Shown: in pieces, positions 18,792-45,388 of the stretch
How the letters are laid out: every line of letters begins with the position of its first letter
Numbering within the stretch: position 1 is the first letter of the stretch
Assembly: GCA_044892525.1 (NCBI GenBank)
Contig: CM097885.1
Span: 26,910,001-26,974,000 of the forward strand
Direction of reading: 5' to 3'
Length of the DNA: 64,000 nt
Source of the DNA: Schmidtea polychroa
Lineage: Eukaryota
The notes under the pieces: generated by a model
The model's database searches: none
What the model saw: the letters and a program-made list of their open reading frames with translations, nothing else
Told to the model about the DNA's origin: nothing
Translations under genes and position numbers: made by a program

Positions 18792-20501
18792 TGAATTTGG
18801 TGTTTTTCGTTATATTTAAATCAATACCATTATTTAATGACTGTTATGTTTTCAAAATTCAGATAATTCCATTGAAAGAATGGCAACTTTTAAGATAAAA
18901 TTTCATAAATCCTTAGCTCCATACAACGAAACTCATAAGATTACCAGCTAAAAGTAAACATTCTAAAATAACAGATTTTTGAAAAATGAAACAGCTTAGA
19001 AATCTCAAAGATAATTACATTTTATTTGACTGAAATTTATATTCTTTCACATATAGATTAGGATATTAGTGATCTGGATCTAGACTCGACCTTACAACAC
19101 CGAAATTCCAACAACAATCACAATCTAAAGTCCTCTATATTTATTACAATTAGAATTTAGGATCACTCACCTGCAGTTTGTCATTTAGGATCATTAATGT
19201 CTAGCTGCATCCAAAAAAGAGCGTTCTCAGACATTGAATCTATTTTATTGCAATTAACTATTGCACTTAAACTTGTAAAAATACGATTTCCTTCCATTAA
19301 ATTCTCATCTTCCATCTACAAAGGGCTCTTCACCAAAATCCCATTATTGTCCTGTGCTTTTCCCGAGACATGAATTGGCTTTTGAAATAAGGTCACCACT
19401 CAACTGTTCTTTTGAAAAGTAAACAAAATGCTTGATAACATAAGATGTAGAAACAATAACAATCTTCTAGATCTACTCGAGTACTGATACTTCATATGAT
19501 TCACAATTTTCACAAAAAACAAAAAGAAATGAAAAATTTTTTTCATTATTCTCATCTCATTTCTCGACTCCGATTAATCAATACTACCACCCCCTATGAT
19601 TTTAATAAATCTGCTAATTTTCGATGAGGATTTATTATTTCAGAGCAGTGTTCTCAATCCGAGACCCTCAAGGTGATTTGGAGTAGCCCGTCAGAAAAGT
19701 TACTGAAAAAACCGTTTGTTTAATTTTTCATGGAATTTTTATTCAGAATGGCAGGTGGTAAACCTATGTGTTTGCTATCCCAGATTAATGTTTCTGTTCT
19801 TAAAAAGCCAAATCTTTAAAAGAAACTACACAACAATGCATAGCGACTTTGATAAAAACTATAAAGTTTTTTATAAAGTCAGACAAGATAAAGTTATTTC
19901 TTTAAAGATGATTCTTCAAGGGCAACTAAATCTTTTACAGTATCATTTAAATACAAGTCATCGTGTTACAGAAGCGGCGATGAATGTTTGCAAAAAACAA
20001 AAACGTATTCAGACGGTGAAACGGTAAAATTCTGTTTCAAGAATGTGCAGATTCTTTGTTTGCTGAGATTAAGAATAACAATGAAATCAAAAAGCAGATA
20101 TCAGATCTTCAGTTATCTCACCAAACTTTATTAAAACGAATTGAACTTATATCTAGTGGTGGGTTACTGGTGGTTGAATGTTTAAGTGCTGTTACCAGCG
20201 TAACCCAGAATACAACATTGTTTCCCTCTTGGTACCCGTTGAGCAATCAACGTTGGTACTGTACCAAGGGGTTGAGTACTCCCAAAAAGTGAGCGCGTCA
20301 AGCACTATAGTTGTCGAGCACTCTATGGGTTCACGGACGCCGATAGAAGGCACGTGTCCGATTTGTTTCGGTCCCTCATCGAGATTGTTTCCCCAAACGC
20401 CTTTTTACCAATCATCTTGTTTTGGACAACAGCAAAGTTCAATCTCATACTCATTAGATAACGGATCATTTATTTAATCACTACTAAATGACAAGGTTCG
20501 T

Positions 20502-21008
20502 TTACGCACTCTCGAACGTCTCCCAGGATTGTGGATTGGCTTCCATTTCTTTCAATTTCTCCTGTTCGGTTAGCCAGGCCCGCTTCAATTTGTCCCGGGT
20601 GTTCCGCCCTAGCCGTTTGCGTTTCGGCTTGCTTGCCTGGGCTGGTGGGTATATCTGGGCCAACTCCACGGAAAGTGGACGAATCTGCTCGCAAAGGGTG
20701 TCCTGGACAAACCTTTCGTTCAATTTACTCTCGAGCGAGCGCACTTGTAGCTTCAGCGCTCGGATCTCGAGTTGATCTTGCTCCGCCTGGGTCTGGAGTT
20801 GTGAGATGCGCGTAGTTTGTTTTTTCATGTCGGCCGGACTGAACCACGTGCTTTCGAGTTCTCGGCACTTGATCTTGAGTTTCTCGACCCGACTTCGAAG
20901 TTCTTCGGCTTGATGTTGGGCCTGTTCACGGTCCTTTCGTAGGTTTTCGAGGAATTTGTACACTAAATGGAGGAAAAATGAAGCTCTACAACTGGTCTCC
21001 ATATGCAT
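20502..21008 (-). CDS. GC-rich orphan ORF, coiled-coil-like, inside the 5.8-kb insertion (possibly a spliced exon)
   Basis: 168-aa ORF with E/K/R/Q/L heptad-like composition; GC content far above the flanks. Confidence 0.5.
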   Translation of the reverse strand: MHMETSCRASFFLHLVYKFLENLRKDREQAQHQAEELRSRVEKLKIKCRELESTWFSPADMKKQTTRISQLQTQAEQDQLEIRALKLQVRSLESKLNERFVQDTLCEQIRPLSVELAQIYPPAQASKPKRKRLGRNTRDKLKRAWLTEQEKLKEMEANPQSWETFESA

Positions 21009-21285
21009 AAAAGCGATACAAATAACTATATAGAATTAACAGACGAAGGATAGGGAGGGTCATCCTGTCCCTGGGGGTACCCCTTACGCAATATGACTTA
21101 TATGCAATGTCCAAAAGATGAGCTATAATACGACAAATGTGCACGCCGAACAATCACATAAATGTTTTAATAATAAAACAAATTTTACAAATTGTCCTAA
21201 TTACTACAAGAACAAAACAAAAAAAAATATCCGGCACAACATAATATCACTAATTATATCACTCCGCATTGTCACTCCCGGTGAG

Positions 21286-21654
21286 CTAGACCGGGTTCTT
21301 GCGGGGCCTCCCTCGTTTTCGTGGAGGGGCAACTGCCCCCTCCAGCTCCTCTGGGGTTTTCCCTTCTGCTTCGGCTCTGATCTGGAGTTCTATCCTCCTC
21401 AGCCGCATCTGGGCTGCTTCCAACTCGATCGATGCCCGATCGCGGGCCTCCTGCAACAAGTCATTGTCCGGTTCCACCTTCACCCATACCTGGGCATCGG
21501 GCTCTGGGCCGGTCCGGATAATCCGATTGGAACAGTCCAGGTCCCGCCCCTGACACCATCGATGAATATGGTGCCAGATGTACCGCGTGCGAAGGCGGGT
21601 GATTGTCCATTGTTCGTCCTCTTCGCTGCTGAGGTTATCGTTTGGTGGTGCCAT
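21286..21654 (-). CDS. GC-rich orphan ORF ending in an AT-hook
   Basis: 122 aa, C-terminal PPRKRGRPRKNPV; ATG directly after a CCAG acceptor-like site. Confidence 0.55.
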   Translation of the reverse strand: MAPPNDNLSSEEDEQWTITRLRTRYIWHHIHRWCQGRDLDCSNRIIRTGPEPDAQVWVKVEPDNDLLQEARDRASIELEAAQMRLRRIELQIRAEAEGKTPEELEGAVAPPRKRGRPRKNPV

Positions 21655-22044
21655 GCCTGGAATGTAAACGTTAATACCCGTTTAACTCGCGTCACTTATT
21701 AATGGTCGTCATAATAAAATACATCGAATTAACTCACATATCAATGACTAAGTTTATTACGATTGTTATAACTACTTTTATCAAAGAAAAAAAAATAAGT
21801 TTTGTTTATAGGTTTTCCCAATTTAATTTTTAACTACCTAAAATTAAATAACTTTAATAAAAGAAAATTTAAAGTTGGTGTATAGGTTTTACCAATTTAA
21901 TTTTTAACTACTTAAAATTAAATAACTTTTATCCAAATTTAATCATTTACAATTATTATCGTCACCCTGATTTAAGGCCTTTTGTTTTACCACAGTAATC
22001 GTTGTTTAATTAGCGAAAATCATGGCCGTTTTATGAGAATTTAA

Positions 22045-22781
22045 ATGAATTGTCCCCCCGGATCTTTTAAAGGTGATGCAAGTCATTACAGCAGGGTTGT
22101 AGAAACAGGCAATTGGTAATTCTTTGTATAATTTTTAGTTTTTCTTTTAAAATTTTTCAAATACAGGCATCAAGCTAGAGAATCAGAACTTAAAGACTTT
22201 GATTTTAATATCGCCGAACAGAGATCACTTCACTCATCAACATATAAATACTTAGGAGGATGGCCTGATGTAAATTTGTTATTATTTTTAAATATTAAAC
22301 TATGAATTTTAGAAAACATCATTAAGTACTTATCCAGAATTTTGTCAGCAAAAGAAAATTAATCATTTGGGACTTGACAACGAAATGCCGAGGTTTTCTG
22401 TTGAAGCTATTGATAGTCCTCTTTTTGATGCCAATTATAATGATGATGGATTTCCAAGACATCGCTTTGGATTTGATAGACAACAAATGGAAACAACCTA
22501 TGGAGTTGATTATGTTTATCCTTTTCAACATGTCGAAATTAAAATAATATTTTGTCCTTGTCATTCAAGAAAATTTATCGTTAGACCAAAGGTCCAGATT
22601 TAACTAAATCGAATAAAAGGTGTTTGTCTCAATTTTCAGATCCAGGTGAATTTAGCCGTCTAGGAAATAACACATGTGGGATGAATCATGAATGTATGCC
22701 AATTCCCATTTGCAGCGTCAAGAATGTCTTACTGATACGGGCCTTTTGTTCAAGAGTAAAACAAAATTTGTCTTGTTATAA
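22045..22781 (+). pseudogene. CFAP95: CFAP95/C9orf135-like ciliary protein pseudogene, 4 exons (22045-22115, 22167-22269, 22313-~22543, 22585-22781)
   Basis: Spliced translation GSFKGDASHYSRVVETGNWHQARE...LHSSTYKYLG...GFPRH...TTYGVDYVYPF...KRCLSQFSD...RLGNNT-WDES*MYANS matches my recollection of the C9orf135 motifs in order. The last exon has a frameshift and a stop. Confidence 0.75.
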
Positions 22782-23607
22782 CTATTCCATAAAATGGACG
22801 TACAGTCGTATTAAATTTTTGAGTAATAATTTATAAAATGACGAGTAATGGGTGTTTTGATTGAAACATTAATGTTAGGGTAGTAAATTTCAATCATGAT
22901 TTATTTATCGTACTTTTACTTAGGTATTTCATTGACAAGAATGCTGAATTAATTTACACTCTGTCAGTTTGATTTGTACGAATAAGAAATAATAACATGT
23001 CATTTTGTGCTACGATATCAATGTTGTGTAACGGTTTGTAATTGGGTAAATCATAATGTTATTTGAGCTCTTGGCAGCTATTGGGGGTAACGTTGGTAAT
23101 GTGACATGAGCGGGTGGCTGTCAGTTAACGACTACCGTTAGGAGGGTCTGTTCTATTTAACTCCTTTTATAGCCTCTTTCTCCTTGCTATCCAAGCATAT
23201 TGTTATATGAAAACCCTAATTTCTAATTCAAATAACTAAATATATAAATGATTTACAAAATTCTATTATATTTTCTACCTTATATTTTAAACTAGATTCC
23301 ATAATTTATTAAAGTTACACTTCAGGTATTTATAACTTACACATTTAATCAAAGTATAGTTTATAATAAATTATATATTTAAGTGAAAGGGCATAATTCT
23401 ACTTTATAATCTAGGTTTTTATAAATGATACGTTGAGGTATTATGGAATTCTAATTTATAACTCCGACATTTATAAGTTATATTCTTTATATAAAATTTT
23501 AGTTTCTGGTTTAGATATGCGTGTATTTAAGTGGATTATAAAATTCTAGCTCATAATTCAGAACTATTATACATTCACACATTATGTTCTTGGAGATGCA
23601 TCTTGTA

Positions 23608-23757
23608 CTAACCCTAACCCTAACCCTAACCCTAACCCTAACCCTAACCCTAACCCTAACCCTAACCCTAACCCTAACCCTAACCCCTAACCCTAACCCC
23701 TAACCCTAACCCTAACCCTAACCCTAACCCTAACCCTAACCCTAACCCTAACCTAAC
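23608..23757. repeat. Interstitial telomeric array (CCCTAA)~25
   Basis: Direct observation; includes two CCCCTAA variants. Confidence 0.97.
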
Positions 23758-26148
23758 GTTTATGGATTGTAAATAAGGTTATTTTTTATCATTACGTAAT
23801 AATACATTGCATTTTTAAGGCTAATACAAAAAGTATATATTATAATTCAATATTCATAGCTTACGCTTTAGGTATAATATAACGGTATATTTACCCTTTA
23901 GGATTATTATGTCTTTATATGTTATATATTCAATAAGACCTAAAGTTCAGTTTTATTATGAAATACTTACCAGTTATGTTTTCGAGAACAATATAAAGTT
24001 AGATTTCATCATTTAATATTTATAAATTATATTTTTAAGTGCGATATCAAATTACTTTTTATACTTTAGGAGTATTACATAGTTATACATTATATTTTTA
24101 AGTTCGATATAAAATTATTTTCTATTCTGTAGGAGTATTACATATTTATACATTATATTTTTAAGTTTGATATAAAATTATTTTCTATTCTGTAGGAGTA
24201 TTACATATTTACAAATTACAATATCAAATTATTTTATAATTTTAGAGATAGTACATATTTATGAATTATATTTTTAGAAACAATATGAAGTAAAATTTTA
24301 CAAATTAGGATTTTACACATTCATCAATTATACGATATAAACTTATATTGATAATTTAGAGGTATTACATATTTATCAAATATAATTCTAAGTACAGTAG
24401 TAAGTTATAGTTTACCCTTTAGGAATTCTAAGTATTTAGCGATTCTAACATATTTCTATAGTTTAGGAATATATATATTTATAGACTGATGTTTAAGTGT
24501 AACAGGAGAGTATATAGTTCATTTTACGATTCACGCTTGTCGAACTTCTTTGTGAGCATTATTACGGTTAATTTCGAGAAAGATATTTACACTGATACGA
24601 AAAATTATTTCTCAATGAGGTTCGATAAACGTGTAAGTGGAGAGGTCTTAACCGACTACATTAGCTGAATTGTAATTGCTGTGTTCAATTTGGGTCTGAG
24701 ATCTACTCGATTAGAATTCTAGTGTAATTTAGTGTATAGAATTTTTAGTGGTGATTTTAATTGTGTAATGCATTCATAGTCGGGAAGAATGCTTGCTTAC
24801 ACGGCCCCACTGTGACCGCTACGACAAGCCCTACTGTTGTGTTGAGTCGAAACATCACTGTCGACCGATAAATAAAGTATATGGAGCCATAGCGGAGGGG
24901 TTTTATCGACACAACTCCATGGTAGAACCATGAAGTGGCCGACCTCCGATGACCAAACAAAAAAAAATATATAAGGTATATTGCATGTCTGCATGTGCTA
25001 TGGATTTTACTAATTGATCGAATGTAGGACTGATCAGAGACGCATATGTATCAATACGCCGCCGATCCTTCTTACATTAGATAAAAATAATAAGCAGGGT
25101 TTGATCTAAGCATAATTAATATTAACAATAACGATCAAAGTTAATTCAAAATAAAATAAATAATATCATTATACATCAAAATTCAAATAACAAATACTCA
25201 CTATCAATGTGATCTTCAAGTTTTCGCAAAAAAGAATTTGGCATAAAAAAGTGATTCTTGCGACTGAAACGTGTCAGTATATATACTTATTTTGTACACG
25301 TGTATGTATTGATGCATTAAAACAAACTCGAATTCTTTTTATTCCAGAATTTTCTATTTTACGATTTTGATATTTTTAATGGCGATTTTTGTGCCATAAT
25401 TTTTGTTTTTATTTTTATTTTTTAATTATTTTTCATTAATTTTACGTCCATGATGAATTTGGAACGGTTCCAGAACATTCTATTTTACTTTTAATTTAAT
25501 TTTTATTTTAACTGATGTTTTTATGAATTTCTTTTTGAGATTTTTTATTTTTTATACTGATTTATTTATTTTCCTTAACTTTTGTTGTTCTAGATGACTT
25601 TTGTGTTGGTCATCGCCATTTTTATAGAATGTTCTGGGTTTTTCTGGAATGTTTTATTGTTTTTATCGTCTTTTAAGTTATTCGAGTTTGCTTTTGGTAC
25701 TTCTATGTTTATTTGGTTATTTTTGAGTTAGTTTTTTGCATCACTTCTTGCTTTTGTATAATTTTATTTAATTTCAGGGTTTAGGTTTTTGTTGTTTTCT
25801 CCTTTAATTACCATGGTTTATTTGGTGTAAGTTTTAATATTTAACTATACTTGGTGCTTTTTTTACTTGCTGTGTACCTACACGTTTCCGTCACAATTAG
25901 TATTTTGGGTCTAGAAATCAGTTCTAGCCCAACACTAGTAATATACTTGAAGTATTGTTTGACTTAAACAATGCACCTGGTTTCAGTATAGCAATGAATG
26001 AGTCATATGATATTTCTCAGACATAAAAACTTATTATTTGGATAAAATACATGTGTAAGATACATTTAAAGAGGAATTGTTGGCACTCTTACCCATGAAA
26101 AATACAACAAGAGGTGAAGATATATACAAAGACCTAAAGCAATGTTTA

Positions 26149-33009: not shown

Positions 33010-34131
33010 ATGGAATGCCTACCGAAATCATGCCAAGACATGCTCACACTGAACATCAGACGATATGATGGATGAGGTTTAAAAGAAGCAGAAGAATGGA
33101 TCAGAGATATAGAAGAATGGTTGCTGACAAATGGACAGCGATTGACAAGCACTTTCGATGTGTTATTAGTGGCAGAAGCATAGACATTGTGGGGAAACGT
33201 CAGAGAAACAGAAACCACAGATGTAAAAGCCAAAGCGTGGTTCTTAAATACGTTCACAATTACAAAATCAATAACTGACAAAATCAGAGAATTGGCAGCT
33301 ATGGAACAGGAAGATGATGAAAGGTTTGCAGCTTTTGAGATACGGCTAAGGAAAGCTTTAGCTGAAGTTATAAATTCTGGACAATCTGAAGAAGATATTG
33401 TTCAAGATCTCATCGCAAATAAAGCACGCGATGCGAGACTGAGAGAGATACTATTGACGAAGCCAGAAACAAAAATTGAAGAAACGAGATCATTGGCGAA
33501 AATTTTTGAAAGTAACAAAAATGGAAACCATAAAACAGAATTTATTAAAGCAATCGGTCAAAGAACATACGCTAGCGTGACTGAGGGAGGGAAGATGAGA
33601 ATTCAAAAGAATACCCAAGATCCCATGCATACATCATCACAAAGAAGACTACCAGAAGACCAATTTAGTCACCACAGATCAAGAAGAGAAGAACATCCTA
33701 TACGCGGACCAATACAATACGAAGGAAATAACCATGGTCGTCGAGAACAATCTCCAAGAGAACAATTCTTGAGAAATGCGAGAATCCCGAATAGCTCAGA
33801 AAGGACGCTGCCAGCAATATCCATGAAAAATATTGCAAGGAGGCTGTACAATGAAAGTAGGGGACTACCACAAGCATCGGTCCCAAAATTAACGGTAGGT
33901 GATTGTTTTTGCTGTGGCGAAAGGGGACATAGAAGGTATGAGTGTCCACTGGGAAATAAATGTCTGATATGTGGCAAGGAAGGACACGGGTTCCGAGATT
34001 GTTTTTCGTTACGGAAAGATGTTACACAACGATATCAAAGAATAGCGTGCATAGAAGAAGAAGATTCAAAATCTGAAACAAGAGATTACACTGAGAACGG
34101 CCAGGATTTCAGAATGGATCACAGCAATATG
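33010..34131 (+). pseudogene. gag: Element A gag (two CCHC knuckles; stops at 33073 and 33181; tail resumes at 42177-42280)
   Basis: CFCCGERGHRRYEC and CLICGKEGHGFRDC; the frame continues across the ATATG TSD. Confidence 0.9.
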
Positions 34132-35011
34132 TGTAGTGAGCCGTTACACGGCCTTAACAATATCTATATACCTATTATACTATATTATATTATATTATAC
34201 GATATTATATTATATATATAAATGCGCGGTCACCAGCGACTAAGGACCAAACAGAACACAATAACAGTCAATCAAAATTCGTGCGATCAGCTAATACTTC
34301 TACTTATCAATCAGGCTCTATTAATCAATCTCAGAAGAGTAAAGCAAATTCGATGCCATGTTATCATTATCAAGATAAACTGTATTCGGCTCCCAATAGT
34401 TTTAGTGTTGGCTCTCATAGACCAACACCCTCATCCATTACAATTCGCGAAATACGGAACAAATCCTAACAATAATATAAAAACCTAAATTTGTTTATTT
34501 TGCATTTATTTATTAGTAATTGACTATTTGAAATTCTTACGCGAACTTTATAAAATCGTTAAGCTTTTTAAATTATATATTTTTAAAAATCTGTTTATTT
34601 TTTATCGAATGATATAATTTTGTATTTTTTGTAACTTTGTTTACTTATATGTATAAATTTTGTAAAAGATTTCCTGGCTTGTTTATATATTCGCGAACTT
34701 TATAAAATCGTTAAGCTTTTTAAATTATATATTTTTAAAAATCTGTTTATTTTTTATCGAATGATATAATTTTGTATTTTTTGTAACTTTGTTTACTTAT
34801 ATGTATAAATTTTGTAAAAGATTTCCTGGCTTGTTTATATATTCCAAAAAAAATGAATAAACTGGGTGTTTTAAAATATTACAATTGTAGTTGTTTTTTG
34901 AGAATTATAATTCGTTTTCAATCTTGATCGCTATATTTGGATTTTGATTTTGAAATAATATACTTATCCTGATCGTATTAATAACAGCTTATTGAAATTG
35001 TATAATCGGAC

Positions 35012-37753
35012 ATGTTCCCGTTTTCTAAATCAATTTTCATGATTCTCGGAAGTTTTCAAGAAGACACAGAAAATCTAAAAAATCTTGATCCCAGATTTTG
35101 GATTACTCGCGAAACCTATCATCGTGCGATTGCCAAATTACCAGAAAGGACTACGCCAACCACAACATTGGTGTCAGAAGTGCCAGAACAATGTTCAAGA
35201 TTTGAACAATTAGAAACTTATTTATCTAATATCATTGCTAAATCCAGATTACAGGAAATACAATCTATGTTAGTTTCTCATAAACGAACAGCGGAATTAC
35301 GTCAAAATATGTTCCATATGCTTTCCAAAATATTTTCTGAATTAAAACTTTCATCAAAATTTAATCCTATATCCCATGATATTGATAGGCTGATAGATCA
35401 ATTGATAATTGCTCATTCCTGTTTTTTGTCATCGAATCGAGAAGAGTATATCAAATTAACTCAGACAATTCCAGATCGTGATTCTTTGGATCCCGTAGTC
35501 GTTCTAGGTGATTCCATTTCGACCCCTGCAAATATCACAGATAATAATCATATTCCAAATGGTCAATTTCAAATTGCTGACCCGATAAATAAATCGTCTT
35601 TCAAATTTATCAAGAAAAGTATTCAATTACAATCTGAATCATCGGATACTAAATCCGAATTTCCCCTATTCAGTGCTTTCAATAGCTCAGCTGGTAATGA
35701 TATTACTGAATTCCACAGTACACTGAATTCTACATCTCCCCTGTCACGGCTTTCAGATCAGAAATCATTTATGAACAGTTTGAATTCAGTTGGTTCGTCG
35801 AATTCTCTGCTGGAAAGTTTCTACCATTTAAATTCTCAAAACCACGCCGCAATCAACAGTAACAACAATAATAATCAGTCATACGATCACAACATCAATC
35901 AACAGGCAAACAACAACGGTGTGCTTAACTACGGTCAGTATCAGTATCGAAACGAAATGGATATAAATCGCATATTTGGCTCGGAGAAACCGAACTCACA
36001 TTACGATCAGAAATATAAAGATACAGCCGATATAGATTTTGATTCGATTAATGTTTCCCGGCAAGCATTGGCTGAGATGATTGCCGTTGAAAATCGTCAA
36101 AAAATGACTCCGATCAATAATTATATACCAAATAACAAATTGCTAACGAGTGATGTCTTACACACAGCCCCACAACGCATCATGCTTCGACCAAATCCAA
36201 ATGAATTCTTAATGCAACAGAATAATGATTTTTTCACATTAAACTCTCGTGCACCGGGACAGCCATTTATTCACGATAATAAACCGTCTCCCAGCGAATC
36301 GAGACTCAATCAAGCAATGCCCGTGTCAGCACCGCCAGGTACCTTAGATCGATTACCTCTAAATTATATTATTATATTATTATTAAATTATACTATATTA
36401 TTATTGATTTATATTATTATTGATATCATATATAAAATTATAAAAAATTATTTAAATAAGCATCAGCCCACACGAGAGGGTAGCGCCGCACCGGGGCCCA
36501 AAAAGTTCCAAATATTAATAGAAAACCCTGGAACAAATAAGACACAAACCGTTTCAGTTGACACAGACACTACAATTAAAGGTCTTTCTAAAAATTACAG
36601 CACATTGACTAATCACAAATGCCGTTTTCTCTTGTCGTATAACGGCAACATCCTTTCCGACAGTCGTACCTTGGGCGACTATGGAGTGACACCATACAGC
36701 GTCATTCATTGTTTGTTGCCACTTTCTGGCGGTTCCTCCGATTCGGAGAATGACTCAGGCAGCAACCCCAAACAGGCAAAACATAAGCGTAGGTCCAACA
36801 ACCAGCGATCAACGTACTTATGTCAATATTTTTTGGATGAGAATAACTCTCCACTTACTTGGCTGATAGCTACCGAACTAGTACTCGAGGGAATCGAGGT
36901 AACCAGTTCACGAGACAAATACTGTCGCATCTTGCCGTTGATTCCGCCGACGATATTAAGTAAACTTTCGTCCGTGATCCTTCGCACTTCGCCTACTAGC
37001 GTAAAAAACCCATATGAAGAATTGCGTACGGCAATCCTCGATATTTTTAAAGAACCTACAGCTGCCGTCTTCACTAAATACTTCAAGACGCAAACTTTGG
37101 GCAGCAGAAAACCATCACAGTTCTTGCAACACGCTATGGCGGAACTAACGCAAATACACCCGGAGGCTGCGGCGGATCAAAAACTCTTGAGGCAATTTTT
37201 TCTGTCTGCTTTACCGCCACACGCACAACAAATTTTAGCGCTTTCGTCAACAGCAGACGTGGTAGAGCTAGCAAAGATGGCCGACAAGATTAACGAAGTC
37301 GTGCCACTTGGTCCGCAACCAACTTGCTCTGTGCAGTTAAGTAGCAGCACTAACCCCGAAATTTTACCTTCTTCTTCTTTAAAACCTTCGACCGAAGAAG
37401 CTTTACTTTGCGCTATTACAGGCCTCACTAAACGCATCAGCGAGCTTGAGAATAGCATGTCCACCAGGCGGACAAATGACGACAGGCAATATGCCCAAAA
37501 ATCACACTTGGTGCAAAATACTCGTCAACGTTCACCTTCACCTGCAACCAGGAACCTGTGCCGTTTCCATTTTAAGTTTCGTAACAAGGCATGGTTCTGC
37601 CATTTAGGTTGCAATTGGCGAGATAAAGCACCATCCTGTCAGATACTTGACAAGTGTATATACCACGACAGGTTTGGAGATAAAGCCTTAAAATGCTTCG
37701 AAGGCTGCTCCAATTACACAAAACCTAAAGCAAACAATCAAAAAAACTTATAA
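35012..37753 (+). CDS. gag: Extended Gag: N-terminal helical and Asn/Ser-rich region, hydrophobic segment, ubiquitin-like domain (36506-36733), capsid, two Cys/His motifs
   Basis: 913-aa open frame. Ubl FQILIEN...LSYNGNILSDSRTLGDYGV...IHCLLPLSGG; capsid motifs PYEELRTAIL, LGSRKPSQFL, FFLSALP; CRFHFKF..C...C and CIYHDRFGDKALKC...C. The true start codon is uncertain. Confidence 0.9.
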   Translation: MFPFSKSIFMILGSFQEDTENLKNLDPRFWITRETYHRAIAKLPERTTPTTTLVSEVPEQCSRFEQLETYLSNIIAKSRLQEIQSMLVSHKRTAELRQNMFHMLSKIFSELKLSSKFNPISHDIDRLIDQLIIAHSCFLSSNREEYIKLTQTIPDRDSLDPVVVLGDSISTPANITDNNHIPNGQFQIADPINKSSFKFIKKSIQLQSESSDTKSEFPLFSAFNSSAGNDITEFHSTLNSTSPLSRLSDQKSFMNSLNSVGSSNSLLESFYHLNSQNHAAINSNNNNNQSYDHNINQQANNNGVLNYGQYQYRNEMDINRIFGSEKPNSHYDQKYKDTADIDFDSINVSRQALAEMIAVENRQKMTPINNYIPNNKLLTSDVLHTAPQRIMLRPNPNEFLMQQNNDFFTLNSRAPGQPFIHDNKPSPSESRLNQAMPVSAPPGTLDRLPLNYIIILLLNYTILLLIYIIIDIIYKIIKNYLNKHQPTREGSAAPGPKKFQILIENPGTNKTQTVSVDTDTTIKGLSKNYSTLTNHKCRFLLSYNGNILSDSRTLGDYGVTPYSVIHCLLPLSGGSSDSENDSGSNPKQAKHKRRSNNQRSTYLCQYFLDENNSPLTWLIATELVLEGIEVTSSRDKYCRILPLIPPTILSKLSSVILRTSPTSVKNPYEELRTAILDIFKEPTAAVFTKYFKTQTLGSRKPSQFLQHAMAELTQIHPEAAADQKLLRQFFLSALPPHAQQILALSSTADVVELAKMADKINEVVPLGPQPTCSVQLSSSTNPEILPSSSLKPSTEEALLCAITGLTKRISELENSMSTRRTNDDRQYAQKSHLVQNTRQRSPSPATRNLCRFHFKFRNKAWFCHLGCNWRDKAPSCQILDKCIYHDRFGDKALKCFEGCSNYTKPKANNQKNL

Positions 37754-40700
37754 TGCCACCACTTCTAGCGGCAGAGGTGGGAGGCAAAATTTCATCAAAA
37801 TCAGATTTATTTTTAATAGAAGCAGAGTCAAACGCTTTTAATATATTGTCGTCTCCTTCCAACAGACTAAAATTCCTTGTCGACACTGGTTCCAGCTTGT
37901 CGATCTTACCTAAAGAGTACCTTCCAGACCTCAACACTGTCGATATTTCTTTGAAGGCCGCAAACGGTAGTGTTGTTGAGACTTTAGGTTCAAAGACAAT
38001 TGCTTTCTCGTTGCCATTTCTGTCCGACCAATTATTTGAGTGGAAATTTTATATAGCAGAGGTTATTATCCCCATATTAGGATCTGATTTTTTAAGCGCT
38101 AACGAACTACTCGTCGATTGCCGTGGACGCACTTTAAGGATAAATAACCAATTAAACTGCAGCACTATTCCCTCAAACATCTTTGAAGATCCACAACGGA
38201 TAGGAACGGACGATATAAATACTACTCCGTCGAAAACGGTTATAACAATCGAACACCCAAAAATAGCCGTAGATATTATTAATAGGTGTTTTAACACGCC
38301 AATAAGTGACGTTTCGAAGCCGCTTTACTGCCACACGATCGACACAACTTCATCTTTACCAGTTAGATGCAAAATTAGACCACTGTCGAATGAAAAACTC
38401 GAATTTGTACGTTCCGAGTTCACTAACCTCTTACATGAGGGTACCATTCGGAGATCTAAATCTCCATGGTCATCGCCATTGCACCTGGTCCCAAAAAAAG
38501 ATGGCACTTTCCGTCCGTGTGGCGACTATCGAAACCTTAATGCTATTACGGTACATGATTCCTATAGCATGCCGCTTGTTAGTGATATCCTTCACCGTCT
38601 TTCAAAGGCAAAGATTTTCTCCACAATCGACCTCGTGAAGGCGTACCATCAGATACCCGTGCGAGAGTCTGACATAGAAAAAACAGCCGTAATAACTCCG
38701 ATCGGACTTTTCGAGTACGTGCATATGCCATTTGGCCTTCGGAATTCTGCACAGACCTTTCAAAGGTATATTGATCAAGTCTTAATGGACCTACCTTTCG
38801 CAGTTCCATACATAGACGACATTTTAATCGGATCACCTGACTTAGAGACGCATATAACCCATCTAACAAGAACTTTAACAGCACTTCGGCAATACAACCT
38901 TAAGGTAAACGTCGATAAGTGTACCTTCTTCCAACACGAGACTCGTTTCCTGGGACATTTAATTTCCGCAGATGGAATCCGACCTCCTCCGGATAGACTA
39001 GATACCATAGCCAAATTCCCACTTCCAAAAACAGTTTCACAACTGAGAAGTTTTTTGGGAACGATAAACTATTGTCATCGTTTTATTCCAGGGGTTTCTG
39101 ACATTTTGTCACCTCTTTCAGGTCTCGTCTCAAAACCAAAAAAGTCTTTAGTGTCATGGAGCGATACCACACTCAGTGCATTTGAAAACGCTAAGTCGGC
39201 ACTTTCGAAAATTCAAACACTCCATTTTCCCAATGCTGATTTACCTTGTAGTCTGACCACTGATGCATCAAACGTTGCTATTGGTGCAGTATTACACCAA
39301 TTACATAATGACATTTCTGAACCCTTAGAGTTTTTCTCAAAGAAACTTTCTTCCGCACAACGGAAATATTCGGCTTTCGACCGAGAACTCTTAGGCATAT
39401 ATCTTTCAATCAAACATTTCAAGCACTTGCTTGAAGGTCGTCCTTTTGTCATCTACACTGACCACAAACCGCTAACTTATCTTTTTGGAATGAAAGACCC
39501 ATCTCCACGACAACAGAGGCAAATCAGTTATATTTCAGAATTTTCTTGCGAAATACGCCACATTGCCGGCAAAGAAAACGTTATTGCAGACTGTCTTTCC
39601 CGCAGCACCAACGCTATATTGCACGATCCGATATTTCCAGTACAGTGCCTCCGCGACAATCCACCTTCGGCAAAAGATCTAGCTGCTTTTGGCGATAAAC
39701 TTGAAATCGTGGACGGAGTACACTTTGACTCGTCTTTATCAGGTGTTTTAAGACCGATTTTGCACGATTCCTTACGGAAATTAGCTTTCCACTCCATTCA
39801 CGACTTACATCATCCAGGCTCGTCGGCTACCTTTAACCTATTGCATTCACATGTGGTTTGGCCAGCAATGAGGCACGATATTAAATTGTGGGTGAGTCAG
39901 TGCATCGGTTGTCAACAACACAAGATCACTAGACACACTAAGCCACAGATGATTCACTATCCGACCGGAAATAGGTTCGAAATTCTTCACATCGACCTGG
40001 TCGGCCCCTTGCCTTCTGATCGCGGTTTTTCTTACTTATTAACTATGATTGACCGGAAAACGCGTTGGTTTGAAGTTATTCCTCTGAAAAACATTTCTGC
40101 TGAAATTGTAGCAAATTCAATTTTGCAACATTGGATTTCTAGATACGGTGTTCTGAAATCAATAATCACAGACAGGGGATCTCAGTTTGAATCCCAGTTA
40201 TTTCAACAGCTAACTGAAAAGCTCGGTATACAACACCTCCGTTCAACTGCTTACCATCCTCAGACAAACGGCATGATCGAAAGATTTCACCGTACTTTGA
40301 AGACCTCTCTTGGAATACTTTCATCGAGACTTAATTGGACTAAAGCTTTACCTTTTGTCCTTCTTGGTTGGCGTAACACACCCTCCAGGACTACCGGAAC
40401 TACACCGGCACAGTTACTTTTCGGTTCTTCAACATCGTTACCTAACGAATTAGTTGATTTCGATAACGCTCCTACCTTTGAGGAATTAGATATGGCTAGA
40501 GATCATTTTCTTTCGATCGATAGCAACCCACAGTTTTCGTATGCTTCCTCATATACACCGTACGTCCCAAAGTCCTTCAAGGACGCAACTCACGTTTATC
40601 TTCGTAATATTACGGATTCAGGTCTCAAACCGAGATATTCGGGGCCTTACAAATTGATCGACATTAAGGATAACAATGCTCACATCGTTATTAACGGTGT

Positions 40701-41118
40701 TACCCAAAATATAAATTTGTGCCGACTTAAACCGGCTTTTATGATTTCTGATGACGTGGACGAGGACAAACTTCACTCTGATTTAGAGAAAGTCTCAGTC
40801 GAACCCATTTCAACTACGTCGAACGAAAACCTTTCAGTAGAACCGGCCACGGACTCAAACGAAATCGCGCGTACCATGATCACAAACTACCAACGCGATG
40901 AAAATTTAGCTACAGAGAATACACATTCAGCAACAACAAATCCACTTAATCTTCGCTCAATTGTTTCGAAACCCGACAAGCAGCGAACCGCGAAAAATGT
41001 GAAACATAGTGATAAGATTTGGGTGCGCCAAATTGGGGAAGACATTTCCAAACCTCCAAGACTTGCCAGAGTCTATTCCAATGAAAACTTGACACATCTG
41101 ATGCTGAAATTCACTTAA
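37753..41118 (+). CDS. pol: Element B Pol: protease, RT, RNase H, integrase
   Basis: FLVDTGSS, YIDD, TTDASNVAIG, HHPG...CIGCQ, HIDLVGP, TDRGSQF, NGMIERFH. Confidence 0.97.
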   Translation: MPPLLAAEVGGKISSKSDLFLIEAESNAFNILSSPSNRLKFLVDTGSSLSILPKEYLPDLNTVDISLKAANGSVVETLGSKTIAFSLPFLSDQLFEWKFYIAEVIIPILGSDFLSANELLVDCRGRTLRINNQLNCSTIPSNIFEDPQRIGTDDINTTPSKTVITIEHPKIAVDIINRCFNTPISDVSKPLYCHTIDTTSSLPVRCKIRPLSNEKLEFVRSEFTNLLHEGTIRRSKSPWSSPLHLVPKKDGTFRPCGDYRNLNAITVHDSYSMPLVSDILHRLSKAKIFSTIDLVKAYHQIPVRESDIEKTAVITPIGLFEYVHMPFGLRNSAQTFQRYIDQVLMDLPFAVPYIDDILIGSPDLETHITHLTRTLTALRQYNLKVNVDKCTFFQHETRFLGHLISADGIRPPPDRLDTIAKFPLPKTVSQLRSFLGTINYCHRFIPGVSDILSPLSGLVSKPKKSLVSWSDTTLSAFENAKSALSKIQTLHFPNADLPCSLTTDASNVAIGAVLHQLHNDISEPLEFFSKKLSSAQRKYSAFDRELLGIYLSIKHFKHLLEGRPFVIYTDHKPLTYLFGMKDPSPRQQRQISYISEFSCEIRHIAGKENVIADCLSRSTNAILHDPIFPVQCLRDNPPSAKDLAAFGDKLEIVDGVHFDSSLSGVLRPILHDSLRKLAFHSIHDLHHPGSSATFNLLHSHVVWPAMRHDIKLWVSQCIGCQQHKITRHTKPQMIHYPTGNRFEILHIDLVGPLPSDRGFSYLLTMIDRKTRWFEVIPLKNISAEIVANSILQHWISRYGVLKSIITDRGSQFESQLFQQLTEKLGIQHLRSTAYHPQTNGMIERFHRTLKTSLGILSSRLNWTKALPFVLLGWRNTPSRTTGTTPAQLLFGSSTSLPNELVDFDNAPTFEELDMARDHFLSIDSNPQFSYASSYTPYVPKSFKDATHVYLRNITDSGLKPRYSGPYKLIDIKDNNAHIVINGVTQNINLCRLKPAFMISDDVDEDKLHSDLEKVSVEPISTTSNENLSVEPATDSNEIARTMITNYQRDENLATENTHSATTNPLNLRSIVSKPDKQRTAKNVKHSDKIWVRQIGEDISKPPRLARVYSNENLTHLMLKFT

Positions 41119-42328
41119 CTTTATTCCATGTGATCAATTAATTCATCAATCGCCGATTTCCTTTTTAGACACTATCTACCTTTGATAAATTGTCACTACT
41201 TTTCGACTTACATCTTGTTTCTAGTAGATCTTTCATCAATCTCTATTCTTGAGTCCCTGTGCGCTCCGCGACTTCCCGTGGGGCTGATGTAGTGAGCCGT
41301 TACACGGCCTTAACAATATCTATATACCTATTATACTATATTATATTATATTATACGATATTATATTATATATATAAATGCGCGGTCACCAGCGACTAAG
41401 GACCAAACAGAACACAATAACAGTCAATCAAAATTCGTGCGATCAGCTAATACTTCTACTTATCAATCAGGCTCTATTAATCAATCTCAGAAGAGTAAAG
41501 CAAATTCGATGCCATGTTATCATTATCAAGATAAACTGTATTCGGCTCCCAATAGTTTTAGTGTTGGCTCTCATAGACCAACACCCTCATCCATTACAAT
41601 TCGCGAAATACGGAACAAATCCCAACAATAATATAAAAACCTAAATTTGTTTATTTTGCATTTATTTATTAGTAATTGACTATTTGAAATTCTTACGCGA
41701 ACTTTATAAAATCGTTAAGCTTTTTAAATTATATATTTTTAAAAATCTGTTTATTTTTTATCGAATGATATAATTTTGTATTTTTTGTAACTTTGTTTAC
41801 TTATATGTATAAATTTTGTAAAAGATTTCCTGGCTTGTTTATATATTCCAAAAAAAATGAATAAACTGGGTGTTTTAAAATATTACAATTGTAGTTGTTT
41901 TTTGAGAATTATAATTCGTTTTCAATCTTGATCGATATATTTGGATATTGATTTTGAAATAATATACTTATCCTGATCGTATTAATAACAGCTTATTGAA
42001 ATTGTATAATCGGACATGTTCCCGTTTTCTAAATCAATTTTCATGATTCTCGGAAGTTTTCAAGAAGACACAGAAAATCTAAAAAATCTTGATCCCAGAT
42101 TTTGGATTACTCGCGAAACCTATCATCGTGCGATTGCCAAATTACCAGAAAGGACTACGCCAACCACAACAATATGGAAGATAGATACAATGTCCCTGGG
42201 AAATATACTATATTGAGAGAAGACGGAAAAAACATCAGCGACTCCATGGGTTTCATTTCGTCGGTGGAGTCAAGACAATAAATTGTGAAATAGGAAATGA
42301 ACGACGAAGAGACGAGGCAGAAGAAGAG

Positions 42329-45300
42329 ATGTACCAGACGAAAGATGGAAGAAATTGGAGTAAAATAATGTTGAATAATGCCGAAACAGAGATGTTATGG
42401 GATTCTGGAGCATCAGTAACAGTTATGAGCAAGAATTTGTGGGAGAAAATAGGCAAACCAGAACTTAAACGTAGTATGATATTATTGTGCGGAGTTTTTT
42501 CAACTGGAGGTGAAGAAGCAATGGGATACATGACTATACCGGCCACGTGGAATCAGAAGACCAAAATGATCACAGTAGTAGTGGTAAAAGAGATCAAACC
42601 CGAATTCATAGGAGGCATTGATACAATGAAAGAGTTTGTTGTAAAGTTAATGAAAATCAATAATATAGAAACGTCATTGATAAACAAAATTTACACTGAT
42701 GAAGAAAGAATAAATAAAGCACTAGTGGCGATGGCAGGTGAGAATAATAAAGATATGGAAGGAATGATCAGGGAATTCGGCGGAATTTTTATGGCATCGA
42801 AATTCGATCTGGGATTTACAAACTTAGTTCGAGATGAGATGCGGATAACAGGAGGCCCAATAATGCAACATCCTCGACGTCAACCAATGCACATGGAGAA
42901 AAGGATTGAAGAACTGATAAAAGAGTTAAAGAAAGCAAATGTTATTCGGTGTTGCAAGAGTCCTTGGAATGCCCCGTTAGTGATAGTAGGGAAGAAAGAT
43001 GGATCTATCAGGATGTGTGTAGATTATCGCGGATTAAATTCCATAACAGAAAAAGAGTCATTTCCGATGCCTAACACCAAATTCTTACTAGACTGTCTCG
43101 CGAATGCAAAAATATTTTCGTCAATCGATTTAGGTCAGGCGTATTATCAAGTGGAGTTAGCTCCAGAAATTCAAGAGATGACTGCATTCAGTACAAGAGA
43201 AGGACAATTTTGCTTCAATAGACTACCATTTGGCTTAGCAACAGCTCCTGCGACATTCCAGAGACTGATGCACACAGTGCTAGAAGGAATGCTATTCAAG
43301 GGAGTAGTAGTTTATCTAGATGATATCTTGGTATATGGTAAAAGTCAAAAAGACCACGATGAGCTATTAAGGGAAATATTCAGAAGAATTCAAGTGGCAG
43401 GACTGAAGATAAATCCAGAAAAATGCAAATTCAATAAAACAGAATTGTGTTTCCTTGGTCACACAATTAACGAGAAGGGTATCCAGACAAACAGGAAGAA
43501 AGTGGAAGAGATCGAGAAAGCAGAAGTACCAAAATGTTCAAAACAATTGAGATCGTTTCTCGGATTAACGAACTACTATAGAAGATTCATCAAAGACTAT
43601 GCCAAAATCGCCGAACCATTATACGCTGCAACATCTGGATGCGATAAAGATATAAGTTGGACTAAAGAATGCAATGAGAGCTTCCAAACTCTGAAGAGAC
43701 GGTTGTGCGAAGCACCTATCCTTGATTTTCCAAGAGAAGATAGGACTTTTATCTTAGACACAGACGCTAGTTTTGGAGCCATTGGTGCAGTTTTGAGTCA
43801 AATTACAGAAGATGGAGAAGAATCTGTCATAGCTTATGGCTCGAGACATATGTCATCACATGAAAAGGGATACTGTGTAACCAGGAAAGAACTGCTCGCC
43901 GTACATGAATACGTCATGCATTTTAGAGAATATCTGTACGGAAAAAAATTCATAATTCGCACCGACCACAAGGCATTGGTTTTCATGAACACTACAAAAA
44001 CGCCAATCAGTCCGCAGTTCCAAACATGGTTAGCTAACCTGTCGGAATATGATTTTGAACTAAAATATCGGAAAGGCGAAGAACACTCGAATGCAGATGG
44101 ACTATCAAGATTAAAAAGTATGGTTTGCACTCAGTGTCAAACAAGACATGAAGAAGCTAAGCAAGGAAAATCAAAGATTAGATATATATATACTATCCAA
44201 AGAACAGAAGCTATGGAAAAAGTATGGGAACAACAACAAAAGGACATTCGGTTTCAAGAGCTGCGAGAGATATTGGAAAATGGATGTACACGGGAGAAAA
44301 AGAATTGTTTTCCTTTTAACGTAAAAAATACACGAATTAATGGAGGATTAATAACAGTAGAAAAGAACAAAAATATCTTAATGTTAGTCCCAGAAACATT
44401 TGCAGGCCTGTTAACAACAACACTACATGAAGAACTATGTCACATTGTAGTTAAGAAATTATTTCATTATATGGAAAAGATATTTTATTGGCCGAAAATG
44501 CAAGAAACAATCCAACTCTGTTTACGATGTTGCGAGATCTGCGCTAAGAGAAAGATCGATCAGACAAGAACCAAGGAAACATTTATTCCTAGATATAGCT
44601 CTGAATTCCTAGAACAGATTGTTATAGATGTGGCTTACATGGAAATAAACGCCATGAAAAAATATATGGTAGTAATGGTGGACCGTTTTAGCAAACTGAT
44701 TTCTTTAACTGCAATAACAAAGCAAGACGAAGGGACCATTTTCAAAACAATACTTAATAGTTGGATCTATCGATTTGGAAAACCGAAGAGCATTTTAACA
44801 GATAGAGGCCGAAATTTCGAAGGGAATTTCCTAAGACAGAAGCTACAGAAACTTGGAATCAAACAGGAATTCAGCTCGCCTTATCAGCACCAATCAAATG
44901 GTTTAGCCGAAAGAGCCATACGAACGATAAGAGATCTTATTACAGCAACATTGGCAGGCGGATGTGAAGAGAGAAACTGGCACGAACTTCTACCCAGAAT
45001 AGAGTTCACTATAAATAGCAGTCGACAAAGTGCTACAGGTTTATCACCATTTGAGATAATCTATGGACGGAGTGTTAACCTACACTCTAACCTGAAACAA
45101 GCCGAGATATCAAGAAGCGAAAGAATCGAAGACGCGAGATTTAATTCGAGTAAAGCCGCAGACACTATGAGAGCTATGGATAAGACAAAGAGGGGCACTC
45201 GTGTTTTCGAGGTGGGGGAGGAGGTACTCGTACGTAAAGAGCCGCAGAACAGGCACAAGGATGGTATGCAATACGATGGCCCATATAAAATCGCCAGATT

Positions 45301-45388
45301 TCTATCACCTCATCGAGTCGAACTACATTCACAAGAAGGAACGAAAGAAAGAAGAATCGAGTGGCTGAAGAAGTGGAAAAATTCTTAA
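42329..45388 (+). CDS. pol: Element A Pol: protease, RT, RNase H, integrase
   Basis: WDSGAS, YLDD, LDTDASFGAIG, TDRGRNFE, SNGLAER. The frame is open back to the slippery site at 42227. Confidence 0.96.
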   Translation: MYQTKDGRNWSKIMLNNAETEMLWDSGASVTVMSKNLWEKIGKPELKRSMILLCGVFSTGGEEAMGYMTIPATWNQKTKMITVVVVKEIKPEFIGGIDTMKEFVVKLMKINNIETSLINKIYTDEERINKALVAMAGENNKDMEGMIREFGGIFMASKFDLGFTNLVRDEMRITGGPIMQHPRRQPMHMEKRIEELIKELKKANVIRCCKSPWNAPLVIVGKKDGSIRMCVDYRGLNSITEKESFPMPNTKFLLDCLANAKIFSSIDLGQAYYQVELAPEIQEMTAFSTREGQFCFNRLPFGLATAPATFQRLMHTVLEGMLFKGVVVYLDDILVYGKSQKDHDELLREIFRRIQVAGLKINPEKCKFNKTELCFLGHTINEKGIQTNRKKVEEIEKAEVPKCSKQLRSFLGLTNYYRRFIKDYAKIAEPLYAATSGCDKDISWTKECNESFQTLKRRLCEAPILDFPREDRTFILDTDASFGAIGAVLSQITEDGEESVIAYGSRHMSSHEKGYCVTRKELLAVHEYVMHFREYLYGKKFIIRTDHKALVFMNTTKTPISPQFQTWLANLSEYDFELKYRKGEEHSNADGLSRLKSMVCTQCQTRHEEAKQGKSKIRYIYTIQRTEAMEKVWEQQQKDIRFQELREILENGCTREKKNCFPFNVKNTRINGGLITVEKNKNILMLVPETFAGLLTTTLHEELCHIVVKKLFHYMEKIFYWPKMQETIQLCLRCCEICAKRKIDQTRTKETFIPRYSSEFLEQIVIDVAYMEINAMKKYMVVMVDRFSKLISLTAITKQDEGTIFKTILNSWIYRFGKPKSILTDRGRNFEGNFLRQKLQKLGIKQEFSSPYQHQSNGLAERAIRTIRDLITATLAGGCEERNWHELLPRIEFTINSSRQSATGLSPFEIIYGRSVNLHSNLKQAEISRSERIEDARFNSSKAADTMRAMDKTKRGTRVFEVGEEVLVRKEPQNRHKDGMQYDGPYKIARFLSPHRVELHSQEGTKERRIEWLKKWKNS

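Follow-up and report, generated by a model that had tools for sequence, protein, structure and literature searches.

The Burro or GYPSM1 elements of planarians are gypsy-like retrotransposons of more than 30 kb that carry a CCHC gag, MATH, an env-like domain ahead of the protease, the series protease, reverse transcriptase, RNase H and integrase (PR-RT-RH-IN), ankyrin and BIR (PMC6431247). The carrier described below shares their domain inventory, their size and the presence of host-like cargo. Three further systems bear on how a host gene can come to lie in such an element. In LTR-mediated retroposition of metazoans, host sequence replaces part of an element at short microhomologies and is then amplified (PMC5131818), and the same pattern is seen here. 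Pepper NLR retroduplicates are likewise host genes lying within LTR elements, some of them multi-exon (PMC5664825), and the Pxyfem Masc retrocopies of the diamondback moth are LTR-associated, multi-copy pieces of a host gene (10.1101/2022.04.04.486979).

The locus under study lies in a 64,000-nt stretch of the Schmidtea polychroa genome (the window; contig CM097885.1, positions 26,910,001 to 26,974,000). It contains a copy of the gene for CFAP95 (C9orf135), which PDB names and paper listings give as a protein of the doublet-microtubule lumen (PMC10973386). An earlier note made from the letters of the window had proposed an intron-containing, CFAP95-like ciliary gene within a mobile element; both the CFAP95 homology and an LTR carrier are now demonstrated.

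A CFAP95 copy in a solo LTR

The carrier, which went unrecognized in the earlier note, is a solo LTR from a giant Ty3/Gypsy retrotransposon of Burro-like type. Its features, in window coordinates, are as follows.

19645 to 20152, resuming at 25939, plus strand: decayed transposon, which we take to be hAT-like, split by the LTR; its translation continues across the insertion
20153 to 20156, unstranded: left target-site duplication, CTAG, 4 bp
20157 to 25934, minus strand (element sense): solo LTR, 5,778 bp, TG...CA; 36.7-kb elements elsewhere in the genome searched (G000) have this sequence at either end
20502 to 20990, minus strand: element coiled-coil ORF inside the LTR, with weak coiled-coil Pfam matches only and homologs in other Burro LTRs
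21286 to 21654, minus strand: small element ORF ending in an AT-hook-like motif (Pfam AT_hook E 0.059, below the cut-off)
21787 to 21932, unstranded: 72-bp direct repeats between the head-to-head genes, a candidate bidirectional promoter region; RNA contigs of the gene begin at 22004
23608 to 23757, plus strand: (CCCTAA)n telomeric repeat, about 145 nt, private to the window copy and lacking in the other 29 compared
25935 to 25938, unstranded: right target-site duplication, CTAG, 4 bp

The claim that the gene lies wholly inside an insertion bounded by target-site duplications is thus upheld by CTAG at both borders. Duplications of 4 bp also surround the complete element, as well as six further solo copies that were checked, and two more copies, in microsatellites, are ambiguous in this respect. 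Some copies (L048, L055-L059) are inserted in (TAA)n microsatellites or in other Burro LTRs. The (CCCTAA)n insert has the look of a break in the solo LTR that was healed in the manner of telomerase.

The complete element (G000:C2:8.73-8.77 Mb) spans 36.7 kb with LTRs of 5.67 kb, and so has the length (more than 30 kb) and the long LTRs of Burro. Pfam searches of the ORFs of one copy found RING, gag CCHC knuckles, MATH and an env-like viral fusion-glycoprotein domain, followed by protease, reverse transcriptase, RNase H and integrase in gypsy order, and ankyrin, TRAF and BIR-RING; the order CCHC-MATH-env-like-PR-RT-RH-IN and the BIR and ankyrin cargo of Burro are therefore present in that copy. 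A BCL2-like motif had no match at E 0.01 among its ORFs, and the region of the expected polyprotein of about 4,900 amino acids is represented there by ORFs of 1483, 1434 and 1898 aa. The carrier is not a Pack-type DNA transposon, since it belongs to an LTR element with reverse transcriptase.

The small AT-hook-like ORF has homologs at 24 of 30 sampled LTR loci. Together with the coiled-coil ORF (window 20502-21654) it runs in the element sense within the LTR, and both are conserved across LTR subfamilies. Elsewhere in the window, an intact-looking gypsy element (34132-41995) has a gag ORF with a ubiquitin domain (35006-37753) and a pol ORF (37729-41118); it is nested in another gypsy element, whose gag and pol lie at 33184-34221 and 42185-45388. 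An intact hAT transposase of 625 aa, with a Spin-doc zinc finger, DUF4371 and a dimerisation domain, occupies 49840-51717.

The captured stretch comprises 47 nt before the ATG, four exons, three introns and about 450 nt of 3' flank.

21998 to 23208, plus strand: captured host stretch, 1.21 kb, matching the host CFAP95 locus
21998 to 22006, plus strand: left junction, 9-nt microhomology common to the host locus and gene-free sister LTRs (9/9)
22045 to 22115, plus strand: exon 1; joint 22114>22166 present in RNA contigs
22167 to 22269, plus strand: exon 2; joint 22269>22313 present in RNA contigs
22313 to 22543, plus strand: exon 3, with a private 6-nt deletion after 22515
22585 to 22760, plus strand: exon 4, with a private 7-nt deletion after 22734
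23203 to 23208, plus strand: right junction, 6-nt microhomology, AT-rich and weaker; 6 sister LTRs with the flank motif found, of 8 inspected

The parent of this copy lies at about 123.50 Mb (G000:C1:123504545-123505297) and is 93% identical to it. A search of the genome with the CFAP95 profile PF15139 places the parent far above all other places (53.5 bits, cut-off 27), and its exon 4 matches five solved CFAP95/C9orf135 chains (E 8e-10 to 4e-7; profile 40.3 bits). This genome-wide family search succeeded where narrower ones did not: exon 3 and exon 4 pieces from the window, searched by themselves, had no match in Pfam, and none of five candidates scored in a homologue search with exon 3. The reading frame of the parent is intact at 197 codons. 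Its introns measure 52, 43 and 42 nt, with GT-AG joints in contigs for all three in runs X1 and X3 and for two in X2, and with none in the DNA-like run X7. The four exons and short introns described in the earlier note agree with these joints and with the exon coordinates. That note had called the gene near full length and disabled in its last exon. The CFAP95 copy is in fact full length, and the captured stretch extends beyond the coordinates of that note; the exon 4 frameshift and TGA stand, and to them is added the loss of the intron-3 donor.

A DNA search of the genome returned 32 candidates, all of them matches, and a 23-nt pattern allowing up to two mismatches found the same 32 places with no control hits. 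One of the 32 is the parent, a single-copy gene and the only copy outside an LTR; the other 31 are copies. Searching for a parental locus and counting copies, as had been proposed, thus yields a separate parent and 31 LTRs that hold the CFAP95 piece, and the suggestion that the gene was amplified together with the element is confirmed.

Of the 31 copies, twelve are arranged as six pairs with a spacing of about 31 kb, each pair being the two ends of one element; in the two pairs examined in detail the repeats are element ends, 36.7 kb from end to end in the complete case. Paired LTRs are 99.73-100% identical in the five pairs compared, so the movement is recent. Once a segmental duplicate comprising two of the copies is allowed for, about 24 insertion sites remain. 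A pattern for the LTR end has 1,898 matches in the genome, 31 of them with the gene, so the gene-bearing subfamily is small.

The copies are 2-4% apart across 21400-24280. Below about 21100, where the alignment is rough, they fall into two types roughly 20-25% apart; this suggests crossovers in that zone, and the gene would then lie towards the presumed U3 end of the LTR. From such a position, reverse transcription would copy the piece into both LTR ends. The coiled-coil side of the LTR likewise occurs as two diverged types, shuffled relative to the gene-bearing block.

Junctions, orientation and the route of capture

Parent and window align over the gene region only. From 21998 to 23020 the window is 93% identical to the host locus. 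The match then appears to stop, at the point where a LINE has since inserted in the host locus; host DNA beyond the LINE continues it to 23208 (91% over 22992-23208). This LINE, in the 3' flank of host CFAP95 (G000:C1:123489104-123504306; L045, L047), has a 29-nt duplication and poly(A), contains two nested Burro-type solo LTRs and has displaced the old flank by 15 kb.

The state of the LTR before capture is approximated by its gene-free relatives. A left-flank pattern has 40 matches, of which nine lack the gene. In eight of these nine sister LTRs both flanks surround about 2.2-2.5 kb of unrelated DNA, and the ninth is interrupted by another LTR; the captured piece thus took the place of about 2.4 kb of ancestral LTR. 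The sisters are 84-90% identical and are not the direct ancestor, and a small indel adjoins the right junction. In simulations, microhomology of at least 9 nt arises with a chance of 1.3e-4 and of at least 6 nt with a chance of 3.5e-3. The junctions are identical in 30 of 30 copies, which also have three lesions in common. Thus, a single capture event gave rise to them all.

The hallmarks of mRNA are absent from the captured stretch: introns are kept, there is no poly(A), and the stretch extends about 175 nt beyond the most distal poly(A) end observed (X2). It shares with LTR-mediated retrocopies the microhomology at its two junctions and the displacement of element DNA, but not the loss of introns. 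On balance, the whole of these observations is probably best explained by a microhomology-bounded replacement, likely through templated DNA repair, in which a piece of host CFAP95 would have taken the place of part of an LTR and then spread as a neutral passenger in 31 LTRs.

The repair step is a proposal, because a reverse transcriptase that switches templates leaves the same signature of microhomology and replacement (PMC5131818). The same passenger could have been captured inside the particle, if reverse transcriptase switched twice onto unspliced host RNA, which would be an antisense transcript if the minus strand was being made and nascent sense pre-mRNA if it was the plus strand. The capture start (position -47) is 6 nt from the RNA contig start (-41), so that the left end of the captured piece nearly coincides with an RNA 5' end, as would fit an RNA template; replacement of element sequence at 6-9 nt of microhomology is moreover the pattern of LTR-mediated retroposition, as that source gives it. 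However, this route would require packaging of a fully unspliced RNA extending past the poly(A) sites, and a host antisense template is presumed only. We also considered read-through from a neighboring LTR. Downstream of the parent there are two solo LTRs, one of them correctly oriented, and both are within the later LINE that interrupts the captured stretch, so neither was the source. We consider capture within the particle a tenable but less probable account, and favor templated DNA repair over it, while noting that the data do not separate the two. The suggestion that the gene was captured at the DNA level is accordingly compatible with the data, yet inseparable from capture off unspliced RNA.

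Whichever route brought the gene in, its orientation likely explains why its introns survive. In both elements examined, the element ORFs and a PBS-like motif (presumably of proline type as regards the primer tRNA) lie on the strand opposite CFAP95, which stands head-to-head with the AT-hook-like ORF of the element, 390 nt away. Packaged RNA would read CFAP95 backwards, such that the GT-AG signals would be invisible and the introns kept in each cycle. Indeed, none of the 31 copies has lost an intron: the 30 that were fetched align over the full gene with introns, and the 31st, a partial match (query 1-593), spans all three. The alternative put forward earlier, that antisense carriage let the introns survive, is directly supported by both the opposite strands and these counts.

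A second host gene, MANF, occurs with introns in another Burro-type LTR (L069, L080, L090, L091), in LTR pairs about 16 kb apart, with 1,799 first-look candidates. At L069:700-1440, two exon pieces match ARMET_N and ARMET_C above the cut-off with intron-like gaps between them, and at L091 the PBS-like motif puts MANF antisense to the element, as is CFAP95. Intron-bearing LTR captures are thus antisense in two of two cases, a small sample, whereas the TRAF and BIR cargo of the element interior is sense and consists of long single ORFs. Together, CFAP95 and MANF suggest a rule for these elements, by which introns are lost from sense cargo and kept in antisense cargo. The other LTR slots sampled had no long ORF except Asn-rich repeats, in a survey that short-exon cargo would escape. 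Asn-rich repeat frames, antisense to the element, lie in gene-free LTRs (L060-L068, L047, L085) in the slot that CFAP95 replaced, beside the AT-hook ORF.

Decay and transcription of the copies

All 30 copies have AT in place of the intron-3 donor (22544-22545), a 1-nt deletion after 22675 (codon 168 of the host frame) and a TGA at 22689-22691 (codon 173 of that frame). The earlier note had allowed that its lesions might be assembly errors. This is ruled out by the occurrence of all three in 30 of 30 copies and in RNA contigs. Additional stops in codons 47-122 are found in 21 of the copies. Counting single bases and gaps, 22 differences from the host gene are common to all 30.

Changes common to all copies comprise 14 non-synonymous (one a stop) and 3 synonymous, with a pN/pS of 1.15 that is unpolarised with respect to the host lineage; those present in 1-23 copies comprise 74 and 20, a ratio of 0.91. 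Distances are 6.5% from host to copy and 2.7% between copies, and diversity is 3.0% in the gene and 2.3-2.8% in the flanking LTR. We find neither selection on the protein nor any extra conservation of the CFAP95 piece relative to its LTR flanks. Because dN/dS is about 1, the CFAP95 copy is most likely a passenger that was disabled before it spread, rather than a selected protein.

The RNA data are unstranded assembler contigs from other strains, among which X1-X4 are taken as RNA from their spliced joints. In X2 and X3, from two studies, a contig that retains intron 3 equals the window copy letter for letter, and neither run has a contig with intron 1 or intron 2 retained. The exon-1 contig of X3 matches four LTR copies exactly and differs from the host by 7 letters. 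X2 record 12 runs through the junction left by intron 2, and counts of its differences from the two references give it LTR letters beginning 6 nt beyond that junction. Two runs tell against this pattern: in X4, LTR-type exon 4 is joined across intron 3, and in X1 intron 2 of the LTR type is seen unspliced (depth 10.4) while intron 3 is retained in no contig. Host/LTR mosaic contigs (X3 record 20; X4 records 27 and 31) likely arise from bubble removal at equal depth. Since element-sense RNA or DNA would retain all three introns, some LTR copies are likely transcribed in the gene sense and spliced at introns 1 and 2 while keeping intron 3. A promoter firing outward between the AT-hook ORF and the gene could produce such RNA from some copies. 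A third type of exon 2 (window 22166-22257; X1, X3) is also expressed; it differs from the host at 7 letters and from the window copy at 8, and has no counterpart in G000. The contigs have no cover at 23125-23700, which is not counted as evidence.

Could such transcription give the insertion a function? A broad reading is that the antisense cargo slot of Burro LTRs, behind an outward promoter, repeatedly takes in intron-bearing host genes (CFAP95 and MANF), two per element and expressed, and that the paired RNAs turn PIWI against the host gene or blunt PIWI there; we regard this as unlikely. A narrower one, to which we give slightly less credence still, holds that the copy is kept for an RNA role, with sense and antisense LTR RNA yielding piRNAs or siRNAs by which host CFAP95 is reduced, or with the host-like sequence shielding the LTR from PIWI silencing. 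Transcription is possible in both orientations; LTR-type contigs of X3 reach a depth of 16.4 against 16.5 for the host type; Burro1 is under PIWI control according to one report (PMC8532177); the moth Masc retrocopies are a precedent for small-RNA function (10.1101/2022.04.04.486979); and MANF is placed likewise in an LTR. Against a regulatory role stand the conservation of the CFAP95 piece, no greater than that of its flanks, the small size of its subfamily among LTR-end matches, and the lack of any functional connection of a ciliary lumen protein to retrotransposition. An A-to-I editing footprint of sense/antisense pairing is absent (A>G 31, T>C 32). If the copies do give small RNAs, they would represent a transposon-host conflict in a PIWI model animal.

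That the element employs a truncated CFAP95 protein is very improbable: the ATG is kept in 30 of 30 copies, the splice sites of introns 1 and 2 in 29 of 30, and 9 of 30 have no stop ahead of the intron-3 donor, but a pN/pS near 1, the stops in the other 21 copies and the loss from all of them of the best conserved C-terminal motif oppose it.

Comparison with known systems

LTR-mediated capture is already known; whole, intron-bearing genes in LTRs, antisense and recurrent, were not found in print among the sources searched. Nor did these sources describe host genes with introns from Burro LTRs, although transcripts or cargo of the LTRs may be covered in the original Burro genome paper, and no paper that treats CFAP95 and planarians together ranked first.

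Relative to the systems introduced at the outset, the differences concern what was captured and where it lies. The cargo described for Burro and GYPSM1 is coding, sense and internal (PMC6431247), whereas here a disabled, intron-bearing gene lies antisense inside the LTR. The metazoan cases of LTR-mediated retroposition involve spliced mRNA pieces that take the place of internal ORFs (PMC5131818); in the planarian LTR, introns and flanking DNA are kept and the coding region of the element is untouched by the replacement. Pepper NLR copies always have fewer introns than their parents in that study (PMC5664825), while all three introns are kept in each CFAP95 copy. The Pxyfem Masc retrocopies combine a spliced origin with a demonstrated small-RNA function (10.1101/2022.04.04.486979), whereas the CFAP95 copy is of the unspliced type and any small-RNA role for it is putative.

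An intron-bearing duplicate is usually read as proof of DNA-based duplication. The locus described here offers a clean natural case in which a retrotransposon duplicates a whole gene including its introns, and for which the parent, the LTR as it was before capture and the junctions have all been identified. It has a practical side as well, in that 31 near-copies that can be transcribed and are 93% identical will confound RNA-seq and RNAi, as well as the annotation of CFAP95. Retroviral vectors exploit the same arrangement, in that intron-containing cassettes are placed in reverse orientation and the antisense orientation protects their introns during reverse transcription. Those cassettes are engineered, whereas the CFAP95-bearing LTR is a natural and amplified case.
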